Shown one piece after another: positions 1,958 through 49,552 of a stretch of DNA of 64,000 nt (its first letter is position 1; every line of letters begins with the position of its first letter). Both the position numbers and the translations under genes were made by a program. The notes beneath the pieces were generated by a model. The model had not been told where the DNA came from. It was given only the letters and a program-made list of their open reading frames with translations, and ran no database searches. The stretch is from Bacillota bacterium (lineage in GTDB: Bacteria > Bacillota > Clostridia > Ch29). The DNA is taken from NCBI GenBank assembly GCA_040766775.1, contig JAXGPT010000002.1, positions 34,607 to 98,606 of the forward strand, written 5' to 3'.

Positions 1958-1995
1958 GAGAGATTGATGAGAAACGCTGCCGATGGTATAATGAA

Positions 1996-2222
1996 ATTAA
2001 AGTTGAATAAAGCTTATTCGGGTCTGTGGTTGAAAGTCGATGCTAACCGCAGGCGAAGCGACCCACGTAAGCCGGTAAAAGTGCCGGTGAGCATGGTGCG
2101 GTTTAGGTGTAAGTCCTGCCTGCCGGGGATGGTCCCGGTGGAGACGGGGGGTAGTGAGGGCGTAATGCCGGAGCGAGACCTGCAGCAGGCGAGTGTGGGG
2201 TCAAAGACCAGGTCAGCCGAAT
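1996..2222 (+). ncRNA. Candidate structured ncRNA (raiA-motif-like) between fliT and hpf
   Basis: ~227-nt GC-rich block (~60% GC) in an AT-rich intergenic region; ends form a perfect 12-bp closing helix (aagcttattcgg...ccgaataagctt); the raiA motif is known to sit next to raiA/hpf in Firmicutes; the 86-aa ORF 1964..2224 over it looks spurious. Confidence 0.4.
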
Positions 2223-2330
2223 AAGCTTTATTTTTTATTTTACACTATTCGTTTTATTACTTCATATTTTTCCTTTTTGGGGTTAAAGTTGACATTAAAG
2301 TAATGATAATAAGCATAATTCGACATGGAT

Positions 2331-2427
2331 TTATCCACAGGTTTTGGACGCATTATTCACATCTATTAATGCAGAAACATGGGTTATTCACATAGTTATG
2401 CACATTATCCACATTTTTTGTTTCCAC
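2331..2427 (+). promoter_or_regulatory. DnaA-box cluster upstream of hpf
   Basis: TTATCCACA at 2331-2339 and 2405-2413 (perfect); TTATTCACA at 2354-2362 and 2385-2393 (8/9); weaker tTTCCACA at 2419-2427; all same orientation, ~25-30 bp spacing. Confidence 0.55.
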
Positions 2428-2643
2428 AAAACTGAACAATCGACTATCAAAATACTTAACTTTAACAATTCGGTGGTGGTAATATTTTTGTATTTTCCTG
2501 CGAATAGTTTTAATTGGACACAATTGGATATAAATATAATAAAAGATTATAATAAAATCAACACCTCAATACGAATAAACAACACTGCAATCTGGCATGT
2601 CAATTCTTAAAAACCATTACGATTATGATAGCATCTGGATTTT

Positions 2644-3171
2644 ATGCGTATTATTACGAGTGGGAAAAACATGGAAATAACCGATGCCTTTAGGGACACC
2701 ATTGAACGGAAGCTGGGAAAGCTGGGAAAGTTTTTTCATAAGGACACCGAGGCCCAGGTAACGCTCAACGTTGAAAAAAACCGGCACATAATAGAGGTCA
2801 CCATCCCCTTTGACGGAGTACTGATAAGGGCGGAAGAATGCACCGACGATATGTATACGTCCATAGACAAGGCAGTGGATAAACTGGAGCGCCAGATTAG
2901 CAAACATAAAACCAAGCTGGAAAAGAGATTTCGCGGAAGCAAGATGCTCTTTGAAAACATAGAGGCTACAGGGAAAGAGGACCTGGATAGGCCGAAGGTG
3001 GTAAGGACCAAAAGATTCGCCATGAAACCCATGCCCGTAGAAGAGGCTATTCTACAAATGGAACTTTTAGGCCATAACTTCTTTGTTTTTTCAAACGGTG
3101 ATACCGAAGAGGTAAACGTTGTATATAAAAGAAAGGACGGAAATTACGGTTTGATTGAGCCCATGTTCTAA
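2644..3171 (+). CDS. hpf: Ribosome hibernation promoting factor (long HPF/YvyD/RaiA family)
   Basis: 175 aa; N-terminus MRIITSGKNMEITDAFRD matches the YvyD N-terminus; position between fliT and secA as in B. subtilis. Confidence 0.85.
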   Translation: MRIITSGKNMEITDAFRDTIERKLGKLGKFFHKDTEAQVTLNVEKNRHIIEVTIPFDGVLIRAEECTDDMYTSIDKAVDKLERQISKHKTKLEKRFRGSKMLFENIEATGKEDLDRPKVVRTKRFAMKPMPVEEAILQMELLGHNFFVFSNGDTEEVNVVYKRKDGNYGLIEPMF

Positions 3172-3189
3172 ATGTAGTGAGAGAAATGT

Positions 3190-3220
3190 GGCAGTGGAAT
3201 TTATATTCCACTGCCTTTTT
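3190..3220 (+). terminator. Intrinsic terminator of hpf (also the insertion target of intron copy 1)
   Basis: 11-bp stem ggcagtggaat/attccactgcc, 4-nt loop, then TTTTT. Confidence 0.75.
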
Positions 3221-5149
3221 ATGTTCGCCCGACATGGGCAGTAACTAGGCGGTGAAAGTCCGCTATGGGCTTGGTAGTGGGAACCATTAGCTAAACAGCA
3301 AGGGTGTTCACCGTGAGGTGAAATTGAGGAAGCTGCAGGCAAAGTCCTGCACTGACGGACAGGAACTGTGACATAAGGTATACGTGGAACGGACGAGTTT
3401 GCCACCAAAACGAAGTCCAACACTACCCGAATTCCACGGTGTAAATGCAGCGGTGACATGGGATGAAAGTTACTGTTCTTAATCGGGAGGTCTGGGTTGG
3501 CAGGGGTACGTCAGGCAGGGAATGAATTTTCCTCATGATAACCCATGCAGCGATGTATGGCCGAGCCTGTCAGAAGTCAAGAAGAGGTCATAGTACCATA
3601 CCGGATATATACGGAATGGGAAGGACCGAACGGAAGGATGTTTTGGTATTGTGAAGCACACTACGAAATGCGATGAGCGCAGCCAACTTCATACTGAAGA
3701 CTTACCTGTGTGAGGATAGGTGGAACCTGAAAGAAGTATGGAGCGTAGAGCATTTCGTTTACGTCTTCCAAAGACCAAAACGATGGCAAATGAGTATGCT
3801 GGAAGCTTGCTTGATAAAATACTTCTGACCGAGACAACATGAACAAGGCATACAAGAGGGTTAAGTCAAACAAAGGCAGCCATGGAATTGATGGAATGAC
3901 AGTAGATGAACTTCTACAGTTTCTGAAAGAAAAAATGGTGAGCAAATCAGGCAGTGTATCCGAGGGTACTTACGCAAGCCAAAACCTGTGCGGCGGATAG
4001 AGATAACAAAGCTGGCGGGAAAAAGACTACTTGCATACCAACAGTAGTGGACAGAGTAAGTGCAACAGGCAATAGCCCAGGTATTAAGCCCAATCTTGGA
4101 GAAGCGTGTTCTCGGAATTGAGCTTGCGGTTCAGGCCGGGCGACGCAAAACAGGCGGTATTGAAATGCATGAATACATAGAAGCAGGCTACGACTGGGGC
4201 TGTGGATATACGGACTTTGCGAAATACTTTGATACCGTAAACCACGACAAATTGATGGGCCTAATCCATAAAACCGTTAAGGATAGGGAGTAATATCACT
4301 TATCCGCAAATTCTTCAATCAGGAGTAATGATAAATGGAGTAGTGGTGGAAACGGAAGAGGGCTGTCCGCAGGTGGCCCCTTGGCGCCCGCTGCTATCCA
4401 ATATCATGCTGAATGAACTGGATAAGGAACTAGAAAGAAGGGGGCTTAAATTTCTGCCGGTACGATGATGTAAACATATACGTCAGAAGCAGGAAGGCAG
4501 CAGAAAGGGTAATGGCCAGTGTTACACGGTTTATCGAAGACGATTTAAAACTTCTCTAAGGTAAACCGTGAAAAGAGTACTGTTGATACAGGCTATGGCG
4601 GCTGAAATTTTTAGGTTTTCCTTTTACCGTAAAGATAGTGGTATAGGGATAAGGGTGCACCCAAGGTCACTACGAAGCTTAAATCCAAGCACAAAGGAGA
4701 TAACCTCAAGGAGTAATGCTATGAGCATGGAATACAGGATATTTAAACTGAACCAGAGCATTACCGGCTGTAAACTACTTTAGCCTGGCGGACATGAAAG
4801 CAATAGCTGCTAAACTTGACGGGTGGATAAGGCGCAGGATAAGAATGTGCTATTGAAACAGTGGAAGAAAGTTAGTACAAAGCACAGAAACCTTGTAAGG
4901 TTAGGTATAGATAACTACAAGCAAGTGGCTTTAGCAGTATACAACACGAGAAAAGCTACTGGTATACAGCCATTAAAGGCTTTATCCTTATTAAATCCAT
5001 CACCAATGAATACCTAAAAAGTTTGGGTCTAAAAGTCAGTATCCGAAAGATATTCATTAGTCCATTAAATATCTCGCTGAACTGCCGTATGCCGGACGGC
5101 ACGTACTATATGGTGAGAGGACGGGGGTTAATCATCCCTCCTACTCGAT
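3221..5149 (+). mobile_element. Group II intron copy 1 (class-C-like; inserted right after a terminator); reverse-transcriptase/maturase ORF decayed
   Basis: ~1.93 kb, >90% identical to 25371-27298; group II RT motifs (MNKAYKRVKSNKGSHGIDG.., PTVVDRVVQQAIAQVLSPI..) split by many stops/frameshifts; YADD motif deleted in this copy; domain V/VI-like 3' end ...gccgtatgccggacggcacgtac...ctactcgAT. Confidence 0.8.
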
Positions 5150-5309
5150 TTTTGTTGGTAAAATAAAGGAATTCATGAATTTAAGTAGAATTATATAAAT
5201 ATCCGTTTGGAATAGGAACCGGTGTAGTTAACAGTAGACTGATGGGAAGGAAAAGTATACCGGCTTACCATAACTGCTGAAGAGAGGGAAACAATGTGGT
5301 AAAAGCAGA

Positions 5310-5681
5310 ATGTCACAGAGACTGCCTTACAAGAACTTATTAATGATATTGAGGGTAATAGTTTCTTCCAAGGTCAAGCTGGATGATACAGGTAACCTAG
5401 TAGAAATACATGCACTGGCCGACAAGTCTAGGAATGCCAAGCAGATAGTGAGGGATATCCAGTCGGCTGTTACAGCCAAATTTGACCTGGAGATTGACCA
5501 TAGGATAATAAGCATTGCCCAGCTGAGTTGTGACAGTGTAATGCAAAAGGACCTGCGTATTGTATTCAAGGGAATGGAGGTTGCAAGCAAGGGGCTGGAG
5601 CTTGATGTTAAGGTTATGCTTTTCACAGAGAGAAGGATTACTGCGGCAGTCAAAAGGGTATTAACACGACTACCAGCATAA
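5310..5681 (+). CDS. Hypothetical protein
   Basis: 123-aa ORF; no family recognised. Confidence 0.35.
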   Translation: MSQRLPYKNLLMILRVIVSSKVKLDDTGNLVEIHALADKSRNAKQIVRDIQSAVTAKFDLEIDHRIISIAQLSCDSVMQKDLRIVFKGMEVASKGLELDVKVMLFTERRITAAVKRVLTRLPA

Positions 5682-5713
5682 ACAGAACCATAGCCCAGGC
5701 GACACTGAAAGCC

Positions 5714-5938
5714 TTGTCAGATTTTTTAAATATCGGGGAAATCTTTGTGGTGGAGGATGTGGGGACTCTCAACATAGCCAAAACAAATGTGGTGGTGGTA
5801 GCTGTTACGTGTGTCGATAAAAACGGGGAGCAGCTCCTTATAGGTTCTTCTATGAATTTGGGGGATATAAAGGAAGCAGTGGTCAAAGCAACTTTAGACG
5901 CGGTAAACAGAAGGATAACCAAATTAACGGGCAGATAA
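5714..5938 (+). CDS. Hypothetical protein
   Basis: 74-aa ORF directly downstream of 5310..5681; no family recognised. Confidence 0.35.
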   Translation: MSDFLNIGEIFVVEDVGTLNIAKTNVVVVAVTCVDKNGEQLLIGSSMNLGDIKEAVVKATLDAVNRRITKLTGR

Positions 5939-6149
5939 CTCTATAATTCAGGCCGGCACAGATAGCTTAAGCGGAGATGGTATATTATTTAGTTAGGCGT
6001 GAAAGCAGACAAATGAGTAAAGGAGGCTATATCCATGGCAAAGGTAATAAGCGTTCTGTTGTCGTTGATGACTTCTGTACTTAGCTGGCGGCGCCGGCTG
6101 GAGTTGGAAATAAAACCTATTATGCCGGCCTGAATTGGAGTTATGTCAG

Positions 6150-7420
6150 CCTAATGAGAATAAACAATGGACAGACTTCCTGTGAAAGCGTGAAAATTGA
6201 TAATTGGAGCAACTGTTATTATTGCAATAATATTAGGGATATTCTTTTAACGTATGGGGACTGGAAAAAGATATTGGAGAAGTAGTGTTTTTTGTTGTTT
6301 TGGCTACAATAGGCGAGTCATTAAGCATCGCTTTACCTAACCAAATCAGCGTTTCTGTGGTGTTCTCGTACATTTTGTTTGCATTGTAATGCTGTTCAAT
6401 CCTCTGACGGCAGGTTTACTAGTCGGGGGCTGGCCATTTAATGTTTGGTGTATAAGAGAGAAGGAAAATCGGGCAGTCTATTCAATACCCTTTATAAAAC
6501 AGTCTTTAATGTATGCACTGCTTTCGTTTCATCGGTTGTATCCGGTATAGTATACAGCTACCTATATGTGCCCGGGGGATATATAAACCTGGCAAGTGTT
6601 ATACTGCCGATTTCAATAGCATCTCTTGTTTACCTGGCGGTAAATTCTTCCACTGTTGTGCTATTGATTTCAAATCTGTTGAACAAGACCATCAGGTCTA
6701 TTTGGAAACAGAATGTTAATTGCAGGCAAAACTACCTAATAATGTCACCCCTTGGAGTAATACTGGCTATTGCATATCAAAACTACGGGTACTTTGGAAT
6801 ACTTTTATTTTTGGCCCGCTGCTTATGGCAAGATACCTTTAAACTGTATATCGAATTGAAGAGCAGCTACTCCGAAAACCATACAGGCCCTGTCCAGTGG
6901 ACACACTGAGGCCAAGGACCCGGTGACCAGCGGTCATGCCGAGCTGCAAGCTTATATCTTCGACAGTTATAGCCTGGGGGATGGGACTTTCGGAAGCCAG
7001 GATAGACAATATAATGTATGCGGGAATTCTCCACGATATCGGTAAAATAGGTATATCCGACAATGTTTTGCAAAAACCGCAGGCTTACCGGATGAATATG
7101 ATAAGATAAAGGAGCATTCCGCCATTGGTGCAGATATATTAAGGGACATTGACTTCTTAAGGGATGCTTCCAGAATAATCCGGCATCACCATGAGCGCTA
7201 TGACGGTAAAGGATATCCTGACGGTATAGGCGGAGAAGGGGTGCTCATTGAATCATATATCCTTGGAGGGGCCGATGCCTTTGATGCCATGACCAACGAC
7301 AGGCCGTACAGAAAAGCGTTGACAGCGGAAGGTCTTCCGGGATGATTATGAACAGGCGGGAAAGCAGTTCCATCCCCGGGTGGCGGATACTTTTGTTAAA
7401 CTATTTGATAAGGGTTGTTG
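6150..7420 (+). pseudogene. Membrane-anchored HD-GYP phosphodiesterase, multiply frameshifted
   Basis: TM-rich N-terminal pieces (6150-6909) then HD-GYP motifs in shifting frames: LHDIGKIGI, HHERYDGKGYPDG, GADAFDAMTNDRPYRKA. Confidence 0.6.
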
Positions 7421-8013
7421 AAACGTGCTGATTGAAGGCGCCTTGTTTTCGCTAATAATAGGCAAATTACGCGGGGGAAAGTTTAAGAGCTTGTGTAGGT
7501 GACAATACACCACCCATGGATGTTTATACTTCACTTTGTAATAGAATTCGAACCCTGTTTGCGGTAGCGGCCGGTATAATAGAGGTTGGTGCCAGTGACT
7601 GTATATACCTTCATTCCTTGTCATACTTATTCTGTTTATAGCGATAATATCCAACAGGAGCATCCGGCCATGTGGATCTTTTCTTGTGTGCTGTTAAATT
7701 TCATTGTGATATTCATAAACGGAGGGGCAAATGCCCATATCCTTATAAGGCCTGCAGAGGGCGGGACTGAAAAAGAAGCACAGATTATTTCCGCCGGCGG
7801 TATCATTACGCACCAGGCCCCTTACCCCTGGATACCAAGCTCTTTCTTGCGGATGTAATAGTTCTTCCTCCGCCATATCCTTTCCTGCTCGATGAGCATA
7901 GGCGACTTCATTATTTGCCCTAGTAATACTGTTTGTCCAAAAGGCAATGCTGCAAGAAAAATAGCGAGGCAGAGCCGGATGATATGTTTAAATATAAAGC
8001 AGAATCTAAATAT

Positions 8014-8037
8014 CGCCCCGTTAAGGGGTTTTTTTAA
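8014..8037 (+). terminator. Intrinsic terminator inside the ~700-bp non-coding gap upstream of secA
   Basis: cccc-gttaa-gggg hairpin followed by T7. Confidence 0.5.
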
Positions 8038-8144
8038 TGTGCCGCCTCACCTTAATTTTAAAGAGGTATGCCACATTTCTCTTAATTGCCTATTGGTTTA
8101 TTTCATGATAGAATTTACTTTGAATTAAAGACGAGGTGTTGGAT

Positions 8145-10639
8145 ATGGCAAATTTTTTATCAAAAATCCTGGGCAATACTAAATGAGAGGGAAATTAAAA
8201 AGCAACAAAACGGTGGAAGCGATAGAGGCACTGGAGGGGCAGATGAAGGCCCTCAGCGATGAACAGCTTAGGCAAAAGACCGATGAGTTTAAAAAAAGGC
8301 TTGCTGCGGGAGAAACCCTTGACGACCTGCTGGTGGAAGCCTTCGCGGTGGTAAGGGAGGCGTCGGTCAGGGTTCTAAATATGAGGCATTTCCCGGTGCA
8401 GCTTGCGGGAGGCATTGTGCTGCACCAGGCAGGATTGCCGAAATGAAAAACTGGCGGCTGCAAACCCGGTAGCGACACTGCCGGGTTACCTTAACGCCCT
8501 CTCCGGAAAGCGGGTTCATATAGTCACCGTTAACGATTACTTCCGGGAAGCAACAGGGACAGCCAGTGATGGGCGAAGTGTACAAGTTTCTGGGGCTGGA
8601 GGTCGGGTTTACGTCGGCCCGGACTTTGAACAGCGTAAAAAAGTCCTACAACGCTGACATAACCTTCGGTACCAACAACGAGTTTGGTTTTGACTACCTG
8701 AGGGATAACATGGTTATATACAAGGAGCAGATGGTGCAAAGGGGACTTAACTATGCCATAATAGACGAGGTGGACAGCATACTGATAGACGAGGCCAGGA
8801 CCCCGTTGATAATTTCCGGTGTCGGCGAGAAGTCCACCAAGCTTTATTCGGTGGTGGACACCTTTGTAAGGGGTCTAAGACCGGAGGAACACTTCACGGT
8901 GGACGAAAAGGCCAACACCGTAACGCTGACCGAAGAGGGAGTAAGGAAGGCGGAACAATATTTCAACCTGGAAAACCTGGCGGACCCGGAGAACATGGAG
9001 ATATCCCACCATATAAACCAGGCCCTCAAGGCTCACCGGCTTATGTCCCGTGATATTGACTACGTGGTGAAGGACAACCAGGTTATAATAGTTGACGAGT
9101 TTACCGGAAGACTAATGTTCGGCAGGCGGTACAGCGACGGGCTGCACCAGGCCATAGAAGCCAAGGAGAGGGTTAAGGTTGAAAGGGAATCCAAAACCCT
9201 GGCCACCATAACCTTCCAGAATTATTTCAGGATGTACAGCAAATTGGCAGGAATGACGGGTACCGCCAAGACCGAGGAGGAGGAATTCCGGGCTATCTAT
9301 GGCATGGACGTTGTGGAGATACCCACTAACATGCCCATGATAAGGGACGACCTGCCGGATATTGTATACCGGACCACCGAGGGAAAGTTTAAGGCGGTGC
9401 TAGAGGACATTATACAAAGGCATGCGGCTGGGCAGCCTATACTTGTGGGAACCATTAGCATAGAAAAATCAGAACTTTTGAGCAGGATGCTGCAAAGAAG
9501 GGGTGTGCCCCACGAGGTTCTAAACGCCAAGTACCATGAGAAGGAAGCCCAGATTATAGCACAGGCGGGTCAACGGGGTGCGGTGACCATATCCACCAAC
9601 ATGGCGGGCAGGGGTACCGACATAGTTCTCGGTGAAGGCGTTAAGGAACTGGGCGGACTGCATGTAATAGGCACCGAGCGGCATGAGAGCAGGAGGATTG
9701 ACAACCAGCTTCGAGGCCGGTCGGGAAGGCAGGGGGACCCCGGTTCTTCGCAGTTTTACATTTCCATGGAAGATGAACTGATGAGGCTTTTCGGGTCGGA
9801 GCGGATAATGGGCATGATAGACAAACTGGGCTTTGATGACACACAGCCCATTGAACACCCCATCCTGAGCAAGTCGATAGAGAATGCCCAGAAAAAGGTG
9901 GAGGCTCGAAACTTTGATATAAGGAAGCATGTGCTGCAGTATGACGATGTAATGAACAAGCAGAGGGAAGTAATTTATGCCCAGCGCAGAATGGTGCTGG
10001 AGGGGGAGAACCTGAAAGAACAGGTCCTCGAGATGATAAGCGACGTCATAGATTCAATGCTGGATATTTATACCTCCCACAGCCAGTACCCCGAGGAATG
10101 GGACTTAAAGGGCCTTGAAACCTACGCGAGAAAGGTGTTTGTAATTAAAGACCCTCTGCCCTTTGGAAACCCCGAGGACCTAACCCGGGATATTCTTAAG
10201 GATATGCTTATGGAAAAGGCCATTGGAATTTATAACGAGAAGGAAGAAAAGATTGGCTCCGAACAGATGAGGGAACTGGAAAGGGTAATACTGCTCCGGG
10301 TTGTGGACATGAAGTGGATGGAAAACATAGACAACATGGACCAGCTGAGGCAGGGTATTGGCCTTAGGGCGTACGGGCAGGAGGACCCGGTTATAGCGTA
10401 CCAGAAGGAAGGCTACGAGATGTTCCAGGAAATGATAAATTCAATAAAGGAAGACACGGTAAGCTACCTGTTCGGGGTTAGGATAGAGCAGGTGCCAAAA
10501 AGGAAAGGGTGGCCCAGCCGGTGGAGGCAAGCCAGGGGGAAGGAGCCAAGAAACCGGTCAAAAAAGAGGGCAAGGTGGGCAGGAACGACCCCTGTCCCTG
10601 CGGAAGCGGCAAGAAATTCAAAAAGTGCTGTGGTAGGTA
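8145..10639 (+). CDS. secA: Preprotein translocase ATPase SecA (at least 5 frameshifts in this assembly)
   Basis: [10 protein letters not shown].., [62 protein letters not shown] and the Zn-finger tail [18 protein letters not shown] all present but in different frames; RBS before ATG 8145. Confidence 0.85.
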
Positions 10640-15967: not shown

Positions 15968-16164
15968 GTGGATTCCTTCTTGTTCTCCCGGTCCGGGGAA
16001 TCCTTATCCTTACCGGGGCCCGACAAACTTTTTAGCTGTTCAAAGTCGGTGTTTTGCGGCATGAGGTTTGTACCATCAAGGCTTTCTATCCTGGAAAAGG
16101 CCGCGTCGGTAAACACGTTTGCCCTATACGCCCTCTCGACAAGGGTCTTTTTTCGTTTTCCCAT
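15964..16164 (-). CDS. Small hypothetical protein (66 aa)
   Basis: Strong RBS AAGGAGGG 7 nt before the ATG on the minus strand. Confidence 0.4.
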
Positions 16165-16245
16165 AATATTTCCCTCCTTATATTATTATCTTTTCTCCCG
16201 GTGGTGTATAATATATGTGTGATTTTTTGGAGAAGGGGAAAGGAT

Positions 16246-17313
16246 ATGTCGTATTTGAAAGCAGCGGCAAAAAAATTGGAAAAGTTCAAGAACGGACAGG
16301 ATACAATTATCCTTGCGGTGGAGACTTCCTGTGACGAGACCTCCTGCGCGGTTTTGAAAAACGGCCGGGAGGCCCTTTCAAACGTGATATCCACACAGGT
16401 AGATATTCACAGGAAATACGGCGGTGTGGTTCCCGAGATTGCCTCCCGGAAGCACATAGAGCTTATTGACTACGTGATTGACCAAGCGCTGCGGGAGGCG
16501 GGAGTATCGCTGCGGGATTTGGATGCGGTAGCGGTCACCAACGGCCCGGGGCTTGTGGGGGCGCTGCTGGTGGGTGTTTCCCATGCCAAGGCGATGGCCT
16601 TTGCACTGGGGGTGCCGCTGGTGGGGGTGCATCATATAGAGGGACATATTTGTGCCAATTACGTGCAGCACAAGGACCTGGAGCCCCCCTTCGTCTGCCT
16701 GGTGGTCTCCGGGGGGCACAGCCACCTTGTACATGTCAAGGACTATGGGCGGTATGAGATACTGGGCAGGACAAGGGACGATGCCGCCGGGGAAGCCTTT
16801 GACAAGGTGGCCCGGGCACTGGGACTGGGGTATCCCGGCGGGCCGCTGATTGAAAGGGAAGCCCGAAAGGGCGACCCCGAAGCGGTGGACTTCCCAAGGA
16901 CTTACCTTGAGGCGGGAAGCCTGGACTTCAGTTTCAGCGGCTTAAAGACCGCGGTGTTGAACCATTTGAATCAGTGCAGGCAAACAGGCCGGCCGGTTAA
17001 CACCGCCGATATTGCGGCGAGTTTTCAGAGCGCGGTAGTAGAGGTGCTTGTGAACAAAACCATGGCGGCGGCCAAAAAATGCGGTACCGGTGTTGTGGCC
17101 CTTGCCGGGGGCGTTGCGTCAAACGGAAGGCTGCGCATGGAGTTTGAAAACCGGTGTGCCGACGAAGGACTGCAGCTTAGATACCCTTCCAGGGTCCTGT
17201 GTACCGACAATGCAGCCATGATTGGTGCGGCGGGCTATTACAGGCTTTGCAAGGGGCTGGCAAGCCCTATGACTCTTAATGCGGTAGCTTCAATGGAAAT
17301 TGATTCTTATTAA
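16246..17313 (+). CDS. tsaD: tRNA N6-adenosine threonylcarbamoyltransferase TsaD (Gcp/YgjD)
   Basis: [14 protein letters not shown]...HIEGH motifs; ATG 16246 with GGAGAAGGGGAAAGG RBS; TATAAT at ~16208. Confidence 0.85.
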
Positions 17314-17373: not shown

Positions 17374-17484
17374 TGTGGATATTGTGGACATGCCCGGCCG
17401 TGACAGCGAAAAACCCTTTTAATTGTTGTGGATAAACTTGTGGACGGTGTGGACAGTTTGCGGAAATATAAATAATTATCCACA
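17374..17484. promoter_or_regulatory. DnaA-box cluster downstream of tsaD/gcp
   Basis: TTATCCACA perfect at 17476-17484 (+) and 17427-17435 (-); near boxes at 17374-82, 17384-92, 17439-47, 17448-56; sits between convergent tsaD and bioY. Confidence 0.6.
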
Positions 17485-17599: not shown

Positions 17600-18138
17600 A
17601 TTCAAAAGATTTTGCTTTATAAGGATTGTGCGCACGGAGCAGGCAACGGCGGCGCCCAGGGCAATCTTTATGATGGCTATGCCAATAAAGGGGAACACCC
17701 CGGCCATAAAAGCGGCCTTAAGCGTTATATCCAGCACCAGCGAAAGCTGCAGCATACCTGAGTATAGATTACACACAGCCCGCACAGCATGGCAAGAAAT
17801 GTACCGGTCAGCGTGGGAAGGGGCCTTTGTTCCACAATCTTTCCAATAACAAAGGAAGACAGCAAAAAACCCGTTATATAGCCCCCGGTAGGACCCATCA
17901 GCCGGGCAAGTCCGGCGGTACCCCCGGAGAAAACGGGCATTCCGATTATTCCGACGGCTATGTATATTAACTGGGAAAGCGTTGCCAGTCGGCTTCCGAG
18001 TATTGCCGCAGCAAGGCATACCGCCAGTTCCTGCATTGTTATTGGTACAGGACTTATGGGCAGTGGAATTGTAACCTGGGCGAAAATTGCTGTTAGTGCT
18101 GCAAACATTGATACAAGTATCATATCTTTTGTTTTCAC
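17600..18138 (-). CDS. bioY: Biotin transporter BioY (frameshifted near the 3' end)
   Basis: N-terminal 137 aa match BioY (PITMQELAV...GGTAGLARLMGPTGGYITGF); C-terminal part continues in another frame. Confidence 0.65.
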
Positions 18139-25370: not shown

Positions 25371-27298
25371 ATGTTCGCCTGACATGGGCAGTAACTAGGC
25401 GGTGAAAGTCCGCTATGGGCTTGGTAGTGGGAACCATTAGCTAAACAGCAAGGGTGTTCACCGTGAGGTGAAATCTGGAGGAAGCTGCGGCAGGCAAAAA
25501 AAGTCCCGGCACCCCTGACGACAGGAACTGCATACAAGGCATACGTGGAACGGACGAGTTTGCATAACAAAACGAAGTCCAACACTACCCGAATTCCACG
25601 GTGTAAATGCAGCGGTGACATGGGATGAAAGTTACTGTTCTTAATCGGGAGGTCTGGCAGGTACGTCAGGCAGGGAATGAATTTTCCCCATGATAACCAT
25701 GCAGCGATGTATGGCTGATTGTCAGAAGTCAGCAGAGGTCATAGTACCATACCGGATATATACGGAATGGGAAGGACCGAACGGAAGGATGTTTTGCATT
25801 GTGAAGCACACTACGAAATGCGATGAGCGCAGCCAACTTCATACTGAAGACTACCTGTGTGAGGATAGGGTGGAACCCGAAAGAAGCATGGGATAAAGAG
25901 AGTATTTCGTTTACGTCTTCCAAAGACCAAAACGATGGCAATGAGTATGCCGGAAGCTTGCCGATAAAATACTTGACCGAGACAACATGAACAAGGCATA
26001 CAAGAGGGTTAAGTCAAACAAAGGCAGCCATGGAATTGATGGAACGACAGTAGATGAACTTCTACAGTTTCTGAAAGAAAAATGGTGAGCAAATCAGCAG
26101 CAGCAGGTATCCGGGAGAGGGTACTTACAAGCCAAAACCCGTGCGGCGGATAGAGATACCAAAGCCGGGCGGCGGCAAAAGACTACTTGGCATACCAACA
26201 GTAGTGGACAGAGAGTGCAACAGGCAATAGCCCAGGTATTAAGCCCAATCTTTGAGAAGCAGTTCTCGGAATTGAGCTAGTGGGTTCAGGCCGGGAAGGG
26301 ACGCAAAACAGGCGGTATTGAAATGCAAGGAATACAGAAGCAGGCTACGACTAAGGATATTGACCTTGCGAAATACTTTTGATACCGTAAACCACGACAA
26401 ATTGATGGGCCTAATCCATAAAACCGTTAAGGATAGGGGGAGTAATATCACTTATCCGCAAATTCCTTCAATCAGGAGTAATGATAAATGAGTAGTGGTG
26501 GAAACGGAAGAGGGCTGTCCGCAGGGCATTCCCTTAAGCCCGCTGCTATCCAATATCATGCTGAATGAACTGGATAAGGAACTAGAAAGAAGGGGGCTTA
26601 AATTCTGCCGGTACGCCGATGATGTAAACATATACGTCAGAAGCAGGAAGGCAGCAGAAAGGGTAATGGGCCAGTGTTACACGGTTTATCGAAGACGATT
26701 TAAAAACTTAAGGTAAACCGTGAAAAGAGCAATTGCTGATAGGCCATGGCGGCTGAAATTTTTAGGTTTCTCCTTTTACCGTAAAGATAGTGGTATAGGG
26801 ATAAGGGTGCACCCAAGGTCACTAGCGAAGTTTAAATCCAAGCTAAAGGAGATAACCTCAAGGAGGCAATGCTATGAGCATGGAATACAGGATATTTAAA
26901 CTGAACCAGAGCATTACCGGCTGGGTAAAGTCACTTTAGCCTGGCGGACATGAAAGCAATAGCTGCTAAACTTGACGGGTGGATAAGGCGCAGGATAAGA
27001 ATGTGCTACTGGAAACAGTGGAAGAAAGTTAGTACAAAGCAACAGAAACCTTGTAAGGTTAGGTATAGACAACTACAAGGCATGGCAGTATGCCAACACG
27101 AGGAAAAGCTTACTGGCACACACAATAGCTTTATCCTGATAAATCCATCACCAATGAATACCTAAAAAGTTTGGGTCTAAAGTCAGTATCCGAAAGATAT
27201 TCATTAGTCCATTAATATCTTTTCGAACCGCCGTATGCCGGACGGCACGTACGGTGGTGTGAGAGTGACGGTGGGGTTAATCATCCCTCCTACTCGAT
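25371..27298 (+). mobile_element. Group II intron copy 2 (class-C-like; inserted right after a terminator); RT ORF decayed but keeps YADD
   Basis: Same 5' end as copy 1 directly after the T-tract; RT pieces include ..EGCPQGIPLSPLLSNIMLNELDKELERRGLKFCRYADDVNIYV..; multiple frameshifts; 3' end ...ctactcgAT. Confidence 0.8.
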
Positions 27299-49120: not shown

Positions 49121-49376
49121 ATTAAAACCCCCTCAAAACGCTGTCAAAAGAATTCTACCAGAAATGCCGCCGGTTTACCAGCAGGCCGCGCTTAGATTAT
49201 TTCCGCGGATTCCAGTTGACAAAACACGAACATTAGAATTCAAAAATTAATAAATATACGTTATATAATATACAAACCGGCGATTCTAAAGAGATTTATT
49301 CGTTATTCCTATTGACACTGACAAGCCCCTTTGTTAATATTTAAAATAAAGGAAAGAATATAGCTGAATAAGTGTT

Positions 49377-49552
49377 TCGCTCATATAATGGCGGGAATTG
49401 GCCCGCGAGTTTCTACCAGGCGACCGTAAATCGCCTGACTATGGGTGAAAGCGGGTTTCTTACGTTTTAAACCCGTGTACGTTTTGTACCCCCCGTAAGA
49501 TAAACCCTGCGGAGGTTTCACCTGTATACACCGCAGGGTTTGTACATTTTTC
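49377..49552 (+). ncRNA. Guanine riboswitch (aptamer 49377-49447) with terminator-type expression platform, leader of the pur operon
   Basis: cucAUAUAAUggcGGGAAUUGGCCCGCgAGUUUCUACCaGGCgACCGUAAAUcGCCuGACUAUGggug matches the xpt/purE guanine aptamer with C in GACUAUG; then accctgcgg...ccgcagggt hairpin plus U-tract. Confidence 0.9.

Follow-up and report, generated by a model that had tools for sequence, protein, structure and literature searches.

A conserved array of DnaA boxes upstream of the ribosome hibernation gene hpf in Clostridia and Tissierellia

Introduction

Clusters of DnaA boxes outside the replication origin are known, as is the role of DnaA as a transcription factor. In Bacillus subtilis these clusters comprise 4-12 sites each (PMC4447404), and DnaA bound to them activates sda and represses ywlC, yydA, vpr and trmE (PMC4447404, PMC3245932). 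The clusters jointly restrain initiation of replication; their deletion leads to early initiation, which is partly rescued by a single cluster even when this is located at the terminus (PMC3245932). At the gcp/ydiF cluster, binding of DnaA has been proven experimentally (PMC4447404). In Escherichia coli, pairs of boxes that are 2-3 bp apart, the 'double DnaA box', were found by ChIP-seq and mutagenesis to be required for binding of DnaA in vivo (PMC11317965), and the DnaA regulon, which includes no hibernation factor, takes in genes of replication, repair and nucleotide synthesis as well as rne (PMC11317965; Stringer, Fitzgerald and Wade 2024). In the case of the E. coli cluster datA, a highly expressed RNA operon is located upstream, and read-through from this operon modulates datA (PMC10950094). 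The known targets of DnaA thus belong to replication, nucleotide supply and, in Bacillus, entry into sporulation.

The hibernation-promoting factor gene hpf is regulated by sigma-B and sigma-H in B. subtilis, and in Staphylococcus aureus it is also under sigma-B. Control of S. aureus hpf by CodY has been described (PMC6256015). Between the raiA/ModT RNA gene and raiA/hpf, several hundred nucleotides of spacer have been noted without an explanation (PMC10861870); DnaA is unmentioned in the raiA/ModT papers, including this one, and a full-text literature search found no report of DnaA, or of DnaA boxes, in the regulation of hpf or of hibernation factors. Here we describe an array of DnaA boxes that lies in this spacer and we compare it with the clusters known from B. 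subtilis and E. coli.

Results

Layout of the DnaA-box array

All coordinates are positions in the window, by which we mean the whole 64 kb stretch of DNA that was analysed, and L-numbers denote the other loci with which it was compared. Annotation with Pfam and Rfam gave the gene order fliD (40-1059), fliS (1056-1469), a FlgN-family gene (1484-1957), a raiA RNA, the array, hpf and a group II intron. Between the raiA RNA and hpf, the DnaA-box consensus TTATNCACA has five matches on the plus strand, starting at 2331, 2353, 2384, 2396 and 2405, and these are followed by a weaker box. The features of the region are given below, where all promoter assignments are consensus matches.

1964-1992, plus strand: promoter-like site of the sigma-70 type (TTGATG, 17 bp, TATAAT, with TG), predicted by a consensus scan (10/12)
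2013-2225, plus strand: raiA-motif ncRNA gene, RF03072 (Rfam 182.3 bits against a gathering score of 101.3; full length, 1-209)
2283-2319, plus strand: conserved block TTAAAGTTGACATTAAAGTAATGATAAT..CATAAT, possible distal promoter with -35 TTGACA at 2289-2294 and -10 CATAAT at 2314-2319
2320-2326, minus strand: Spo0A-box-like heptamer TTCGACA (reverse complement of TGTCGAA), 4 bp ahead of box 1, putative binding site
2331-2339, plus strand: DnaA box 1, TTATCCACA (perfect), kept in five of five relatives, once as ATATCCACA
2353-2361, plus strand: DnaA box 2, TTATTCACA, a consensus match that varies among relatives
2384-2392, plus strand: DnaA box 3, TTATTCACA, which opens the triple module
2396-2404, plus strand: DnaA box 4, TTATGCACA, 3 bp past box 3, with which it forms a 'double DnaA box'
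2405-2413, plus strand: DnaA box 5, TTATCCACA (perfect), abutting box 4 with a 0 bp gap
2420-2428, plus strand: weak DnaA box 6, GTTTCCACA, with two mismatches to the consensus and a TCCACA core in all five relatives
2524-2553, plus strand: proximal hpf promoter-like site (TTGGAT/TGGATA, 17-18 bp, TATAAT), predicted by a consensus scan (10/12)
2644-3171, plus strand: hpf, encoding a long-form hibernation-promoting factor of 175 aa (Pfam Ribosomal_S30AE, E 5.8e-30; Ribosom_S30AE_C, E 2.5e-31)
3190-3215, plus strand: intrinsic-terminator-like hairpin 3' of hpf, with an 11-bp stem and then a T-run

An earlier note on this DNA had described four boxes on the same strand with a spacing of ~25-30 bp. 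The array is confirmed, and its boxes do share one strand, but their number is five consensus boxes and one weak box, the box at 2396 and its abutment with the next one having been missed, and the spacing is not uniform, with 22, 31, 12, 9 and 15 bp from start to start for boxes 1 to 6. Boxes 3 to 5 form a triple module (box, 3 bp, box, 0 bp, box; 2384-2413), which reads TTATTCACAtagTTATGCACATTATCCACA in the window. Two boxes in the same orientation with a gap of 2-3 bp are taken as a cooperative pair, and boxes 3 and 4 are arranged in this manner.

On both strands of the window there are eight matches to TTATNCACA, compared with 1.95 +/- 1.27 in shuffled sequences (maximum 6). Five of the eight sit in 83 bp of a single strand (Poisson probability from the shuffle mean, ~1e-13), and two of the other three fall in a second cluster at 17374-17484. 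With a cluster defined as at least 3-4 matches to TTATNCACA per ~100-200 bp, above chance, the array has five exact boxes and one weak box in 98 bp. Chance, or AT-rich composition, as the source of the array is ruled out by these shuffles and by the 200 permuted motifs described below. An open reading frame of 88 aa (2344-2610) overlaps the array and was rejected as a gene because relatives have indels in it, including a 36-nt insertion, the identity of the spacers is ~50% and conservation is confined to the 9-mers.

Comparison with five close relatives, whose Hpf is 81-90% identical, gave a pairwise identity of 91% across the six boxes, counted at their eight specified positions, and of 49% across the spacers within the array. 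The changes in box 2 affect mainly the degenerate fifth position (T/T/A/C/A), as expected under selection on TTATNCACA, and in L202 also position 3 (TTTTCCACA). The difference in identity between boxes and spacers, together with the changes in box 2, indicates a footprint of selection on DnaA boxes.

Promoter-like sites and sequence quality around the array

The sigma-70-type site is located ~20 nt 5' of the Rfam match for the raiA RNA, and a T-run is found 3' of the closing helix of this RNA. Ahead of the boxes, the region 2283-2330 shows 78% pairwise identity among the five relatives, against 49-54% in neutral spacers. The block at 2283-2319 is possibly a distal promoter, with a 19-bp spacer, which is long, and a -35 that is missing in L002; any transcript starting there would have to traverse the array. 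The Spo0A-box-like heptamer is kept in four of the five close relatives, and 10 of the 80 loci analysed below have TTCGACA upstream of hpf, where ~1.4 would be expected from background counts. The proximal promoter-like site begins 111 bp past box 5, and the block at 2511-2556 is 76% identical among the relatives.

Although the window seems error-prone or decaying downstream of hpf, the boxes of the array are backed by the relatives. Four genes that follow hpf (5300-8630; a 214-aa protein, a MASE9-HD protein, DUF5317 and the secA N-terminus) are intact in relatives and split over two or three frames in the window, and the reverse-transcriptase ORF of the group II intron (~3840-4300) is fragmented too, which suggests an indel-prone assembly or pseudogenisation. 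The group II intron is present in two copies, at ~3240-5100 and ~25400-25800 (Rfam D1-D4 at 3307-3626 and 25457-25777), and the first of these sits directly past the hpf terminator, where L201 and L202 have no intron. The Shine-Dalgarno region of hpf (2625-2643) reads GATAGCATCTGG in the window and GAGAGGAGCTGG in all relatives (L205 230-248), even in one that has a 97%-identical Hpf and matches the window at every other position of the 250 nt upstream; these three clustered substitutions in the ribosome-binding site may reflect a sequencing or assembly error or a translational down-mutation. A purine riboswitch aptamer was also identified at 49361-49461 (Rfam RF00167, 83.8 bits).

Conservation of the array upstream of hpf

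The sample for comparison consisted of the best 80 relatives of Hpf, on contigs from one genome per species and with loci of ~8.5 kb; these are close and mostly uncultured relatives, and the 80 loci are phylogenetically related, with spacers that have diverged. Within 600 bp upstream of hpf we found 136 of the 184 matches to TTATNCACA in these loci, and in most of the 80 nearly all of the matches are at that distance (≤600 bp). The upstream regions, 47 kb in total, have 112 matches on the hpf strand and 24 on the opposite strand, compared with 48 in the remaining 571 kb. When 200 permuted motifs of the same composition were counted in the same regions, the means were 1.3 and 1.9 in place of 112 and 24, and the only permuted motif with a high score was the DnaA box displaced by one base. 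The orientation bias of 112 to 24 relative to hpf argues for a directional function. An unbiased search for 7-mers enriched upstream of hpf ranked pieces of the DnaA box at the top, with TATCCAC in 42 of the 80 loci and the box-junction heptamer CACATTA in 32 of the 80 (1.9 expected), followed by words from the raiA RNA and the ribosome-binding site.

At least two exact boxes on the same strand are present upstream of hpf in 43 of 81 loci, the window included, and ~40% of the sampled hpf loci have no array. The carriers include Tissierella, Sporanaerobacter, Soehngenia, Alkaliphilus, Caloranaerobacter, Caloramator, Ruminiclostridium and Anaerobacterium, as well as one Hungateiclostridiaceae genome, Ca. 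Formimonas and Pelotomaculum. They belong to several orders and families from both Clostridia and Tissierellia, which are two separate classes, and with so many genera the array cannot be called lineage-specific, which the earlier note had considered possible. No array is present in Clostridium sensu stricto, Sedimentibacter and some other taxa, and within this sample the lack of one in Clostridium sensu stricto, as in B. subtilis, seems to be exceptional.

The arrangement of the boxes recurs as well. Across loci, successive boxes on the same strand are spaced almost only by 9, 12, 21-23 or 30-32 bp, of which 12 bp is the commonest, and the recurring core consists of box, 3 bp, box, 0 bp, box with one or two more boxes two to three helical turns upstream. 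Several lineages have a convergent minus-strand box after the plus-strand array. In Oscillospiraceae-like lineages (L042, L045, L046, L060, L077, L115, L122 and L189) the plus-strand boxes are followed by a conserved palindrome, CACAAAACAnnTGTTTTGTG, which may represent paired convergent weak DnaA boxes or the site of another dimeric regulator.

Genes that accompany the array

A search with nhmmer placed a raiA RNA upstream of hpf in 30 of the 80 loci. Seventeen box-bearing loci have no raiA RNA (Rfam), and in 12 Clostridium sensu stricto loci the raiA RNA is present and the boxes are absent; as each occurs without the other, we rejected the array as an accessory of the raiA RNA gene. The upstream neighbour of the array is not constant, being a flgN-like gene, a ~225-250-aa ORF (comFC-sized), minus-strand genes or a 943-aa ORF. 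This variation and the independence from the raiA RNA indicate that the array goes with hpf and not with its neighbours.

In seven loci the array heads a three-gene operon for a polar-amino-acid ABC transporter (binding protein, permease and ATPase) that adjoins hpf.

Arrays at the ABC-transporter operon: L023 492-575 (Caldicoprobacter), L029 (Caldicoprobacter), L033, L066 1485-1515, L074 7596-7613, L167 and L181 (both metagenome)

Co-transcription is likely in L066, since hpf begins there ~55 bp past the ATPase gene, and in L074 the operon and the array are convergent with hpf. These seven loci indicate that the array can be kept without directly preceding hpf; it would then mark the 5' edge of a unit in which hpf is the first gene in most cases but not in all. 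The amino-acid ABC transporter is a second candidate for membership in the predicted DnaA regulon.

We also searched metagenome contigs for the abutting pair TTATNCACATTATCCACA alone, which returned at least 120 contigs. Among the matches listed, at least 12 contigs have hpf within ~500 bp, with the same triple layout and in 11 cases with motif and gene in one orientation; at least 20 have a gene with a DnaB_2 domain (dnaD-like) directly downstream, usually followed by a DnaC/IstB-like gene; at least seven have dnaA nearby, often with dnaN; and at least seven have a WecG-like gene downstream. The recurrence of hpf in a search that started from the motif supports the association of the array with this gene, and the replication genes among these contexts support the assignment of the motif to DnaA.

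The operon of dnaD-like and dnaC/IstB-like genes adjoins murC and has one or two abutting pairs 100-300 bp upstream (at least 20 loci, for example L095, L159 and L194). The third box at the 12-bp offset is absent from these loci, and many of the contigs are from human-gut metagenomes. The operon is likely to be a DnaA-regulated helicase-loader operon. A triple array with a box ~53 bp upstream, as at hpf, precedes the gene for a ~223-aa protein in L137, L146, L157, L162, L169, L171 and L184; the protein is like WecG/TagA by eye, and its gene lies downstream of an NlpC/P60 gene. Along with the helicase-loader operon and the ABC transporter, this WecG-like gene is a candidate for the predicted regulon.

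A second cluster near tsaD/gcp

The second cluster of the window (17374-17484) comprises six boxes, including two perfect ones, in which the offsets of 9 and 12 bp recur. It is flanked by the 3' ends of tsaD/gcp (16054-17313) and of bioY (17725-18138), which is on the minus strand.

Second cluster, minus strand: TGTGGATAT/TGTGGACAT abutting, then TGTGGATAA, 3 bp, TGTGGACGG/TGTGGACAG abutting
Second cluster, plus strand: TTATCCACA at 17476

As judged from its place just 3' of tsaD/gcp, this is the positional homologue of the B. subtilis gcp/ydiF cluster and serves as an internal control: the organism keeps a cluster where binding of DnaA is established in a relative.

Discussion

Proposed role of the array

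We propose that the array is a non-origin DnaA-box cluster in a regulatory region which places the hpf transcription unit under the control of DnaA, and we would put the probability of this at about 0.6. What is read directly from the DNA is a set of conserved boxes with a non-random, directional and helically phased layout that stays attached to hpf on its 5' side, and this supports the assignment of the array as a non-origin DnaA-box cluster; from it we infer binding of DnaA and an effect, of either sign, on hpf transcription. DnaA would bind the triple module at 2384-2413 cooperatively and head to tail, together with the helically phased flanking boxes ~22 and 31 bp off, and an oligomer of ~six protomers would thus assemble ~100-200 bp ahead of the hpf core promoter, where it would modulate hpf transcription. 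Ribosome hibernation would then track the amount or activity of the initiator, along with other global regulators. The array must also sequester some DnaA as a by-product.

As for the sign, we lean slightly towards repression, or a roadblock, during growth: bound DnaA would hold hpf low in active growth, by blocking the distal promoter or read-through from strongly transcribed upstream genes, and hpf would rise as the activity of DnaA drops. Activation of the kind seen at sda appears nearly as plausible. Schaefer and Messer reportedly described a DnaA-dependent termination of transcription in E. coli, with a dependence on orientation. Across the loci, the distance from the array to the start codon of hpf is 129-619 bp and the offset to the best predicted promoter is 16-298 bp; a fixed activator or repressor geometry was rejected in the absence of a constant offset between array and promoter, and with both distances variable the sign of regulation cannot be called from the layout.

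Alternative explanations

The array could instead be a titration or DnaA-cycle locus that times initiation, in the manner of the DnaA-box clusters of B. subtilis and of E. coli datA/DARS, with the adjacency to hpf a frozen syntenic accident and no direct effect on hpf. We consider this less likely than control of hpf, but a serious rival, and several observations would suit it. Five to six high-quality boxes are comparable to the 4-12 sites of the B. subtilis clusters (PMC4447404), for which the early initiation upon deletion and its partial rescue by one cluster at the terminus have been described (PMC3245932); the array persists where the ABC-transporter operon lies between it and hpf, or is convergent with hpf; its distance to the promoter is not fixed; and the convergent minus-strand box that several lineages add is loosely like the mixed orientations reported for DARS. 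Against titration, the same gene follows the array in two classes while the upstream gene changes, and the orientation of the boxes is tied to the downstream gene, which would be needless for a pure sink. The position of the array relative to the start of the record is also inconsistent, with hpf at ~17%, 24%, 51% and 59% of complete genome records. These widely differing positions, to which the array follows hpf, count also against a chromosomal or secondary replication origin, a reading that we rejected and regard as barely credible. Multiple tandem boxes in the same orientation, two of them perfect, with AT-rich flanks, might be expected of an origin, but the 64 kb window has no DnaA homologue by tblastn (best E 0.32) with a B. 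subtilis DnaA query, which is valid in that it detects DnaA in seven metagenome loci. The GC skew is positive on either side of the array (+0.23 at 1-2000 and +0.17 at 2001-4000), no lasting switch is seen across the 64 kb, over which the cumulative skew climbs almost steadily with small local dips, and the genes that flank the array on both sides are co-directional. By inspection, there is no DnaA-trio-like run or AT-rich unwinding element beside the boxes and there are no TAG/TAA trios after boxes 5-6, and the relatives do not preserve trios in the TAA-phased block ahead of box 1. The marks of oriC, namely adjacency of dnaA/dnaN, a change in the sign of the skew, and a trio run with an unwinding element, are therefore lacking at the array, and the view of the earlier note that no dnaA is nearby and that this is not oriC holds within the 64 kb window.

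It is also improbable that the repeats are bound by a different regulator, such as Spo0A or one of the Rex/CRP type, or that they are without function and arise from the AT richness of the intergenic sequence. The intergenic DNA is indeed AT-rich, but permuted motifs of the same composition are not enriched. With respect to a different regulator, TCCACA is one base apart from TCGACA, the core of the Spo0A box, and some lineages have a TTCACA...TGTGAA palindrome beside the array; against this, conservation extends over the full 9-mer TTATNCACA and most of the variation falls on its N position, the repeats are direct and not palindromic, and the same abutting pair is found beside dnaA and upstream of the dnaD-like/dnaC-like operon. 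In the case of Spo0A, a genuine TTCGACA heptamer is present separately.

Significance

The cluster stands out for its unusually deep conservation and, if DnaA controls hpf as we propose, for an unexpected target. The recurrence of the array across Clostridia and Tissierellia suggests a link between replication status and ribosome shutdown that has not been described before. The replication initiator would then be tied directly to translation shutdown and dormancy, with a bearing on persistence, on the physiology of sporulation and on how DNA and protein synthesis are kept in step. The array occupies part of the unexplained spacer between the raiA/ModT RNA and hpf (PMC10861870), and its compact signature, TTATNCACNNNNTTATNCACATTATCCACA, allows the clostridial DnaA regulon to be predicted. 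Culturable carriers of the array include Ruminiclostridium cellobioparum, Tissierella praeacuta, Alkaliphilus spp. and Caloramator fervidus.

Comparison with known systems

The array has in common with the B. subtilis clusters (sda, ywlC, yydA, ywcI/vpr, trmE and gcp/ydiF) that it is an intergenic, non-oriC cluster of TTATNCACA in a Bacillota genome; those clusters are cooperatively bound by DnaA and often lie beside a DnaA-regulated gene. As stated in the earlier note, hpf/yvyD is not a reported target in B. subtilis: yvyD/hpf is not one of the eight high-affinity regions, and neither this gene nor its neighbours appear in the table of 269 regions bound in vitro, in which control names were found (PMC4447404, on which this comparison rests). 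The positions of the Bacillus clusters are reported to differ between species, whereas the hpf array stays before the same gene in two classes, which makes its constancy unusual, and unlike those clusters it has a stereotyped triple module in one orientation. It shares with the E. coli 'double DnaA box' the pair of boxes 3 and 4 (TTATTCACAtagTTATGCACA), in the same orientation with a 3-bp gap, and adds to it a third abutting box and phased flanking boxes. E. coli datA, DARS1 and DARS2 are, like the array, non-origin DnaA-box clusters. Their function requires IHF and Fis and consists in altering the nucleotide state of DnaA. With a raiA RNA gene upstream, the hpf array loosely echoes the geometry of datA, although it also exists without this RNA.

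Regulation of hpf as known in Bacillota involves global growth and stress regulators that act via a long upstream region, and the locus described here is similar in this respect, with a Spo0A-like box in the window. Two Caloramator loci, L053 (~3930-3950) and L061, contain AATTTTCAGAAAATATT ~60 bp after the triple box; this near-perfect CodY box overlaps the predicted hpf promoter, in agreement with the control of hpf by CodY in S. aureus cited above.

Taken more broadly, DnaA may be a direct and ancient regulator of ribosome hibernation in Clostridia and Tissierellia, with hpf, and in some lineages the ABC transporter, as a core member of its regulon; this extension is tentative, and we would give it slightly less than an even chance. 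The outcome would be a replication-to-translation checkpoint, which we liken to the DnaA-Sda sporulation checkpoint of Bacillus.
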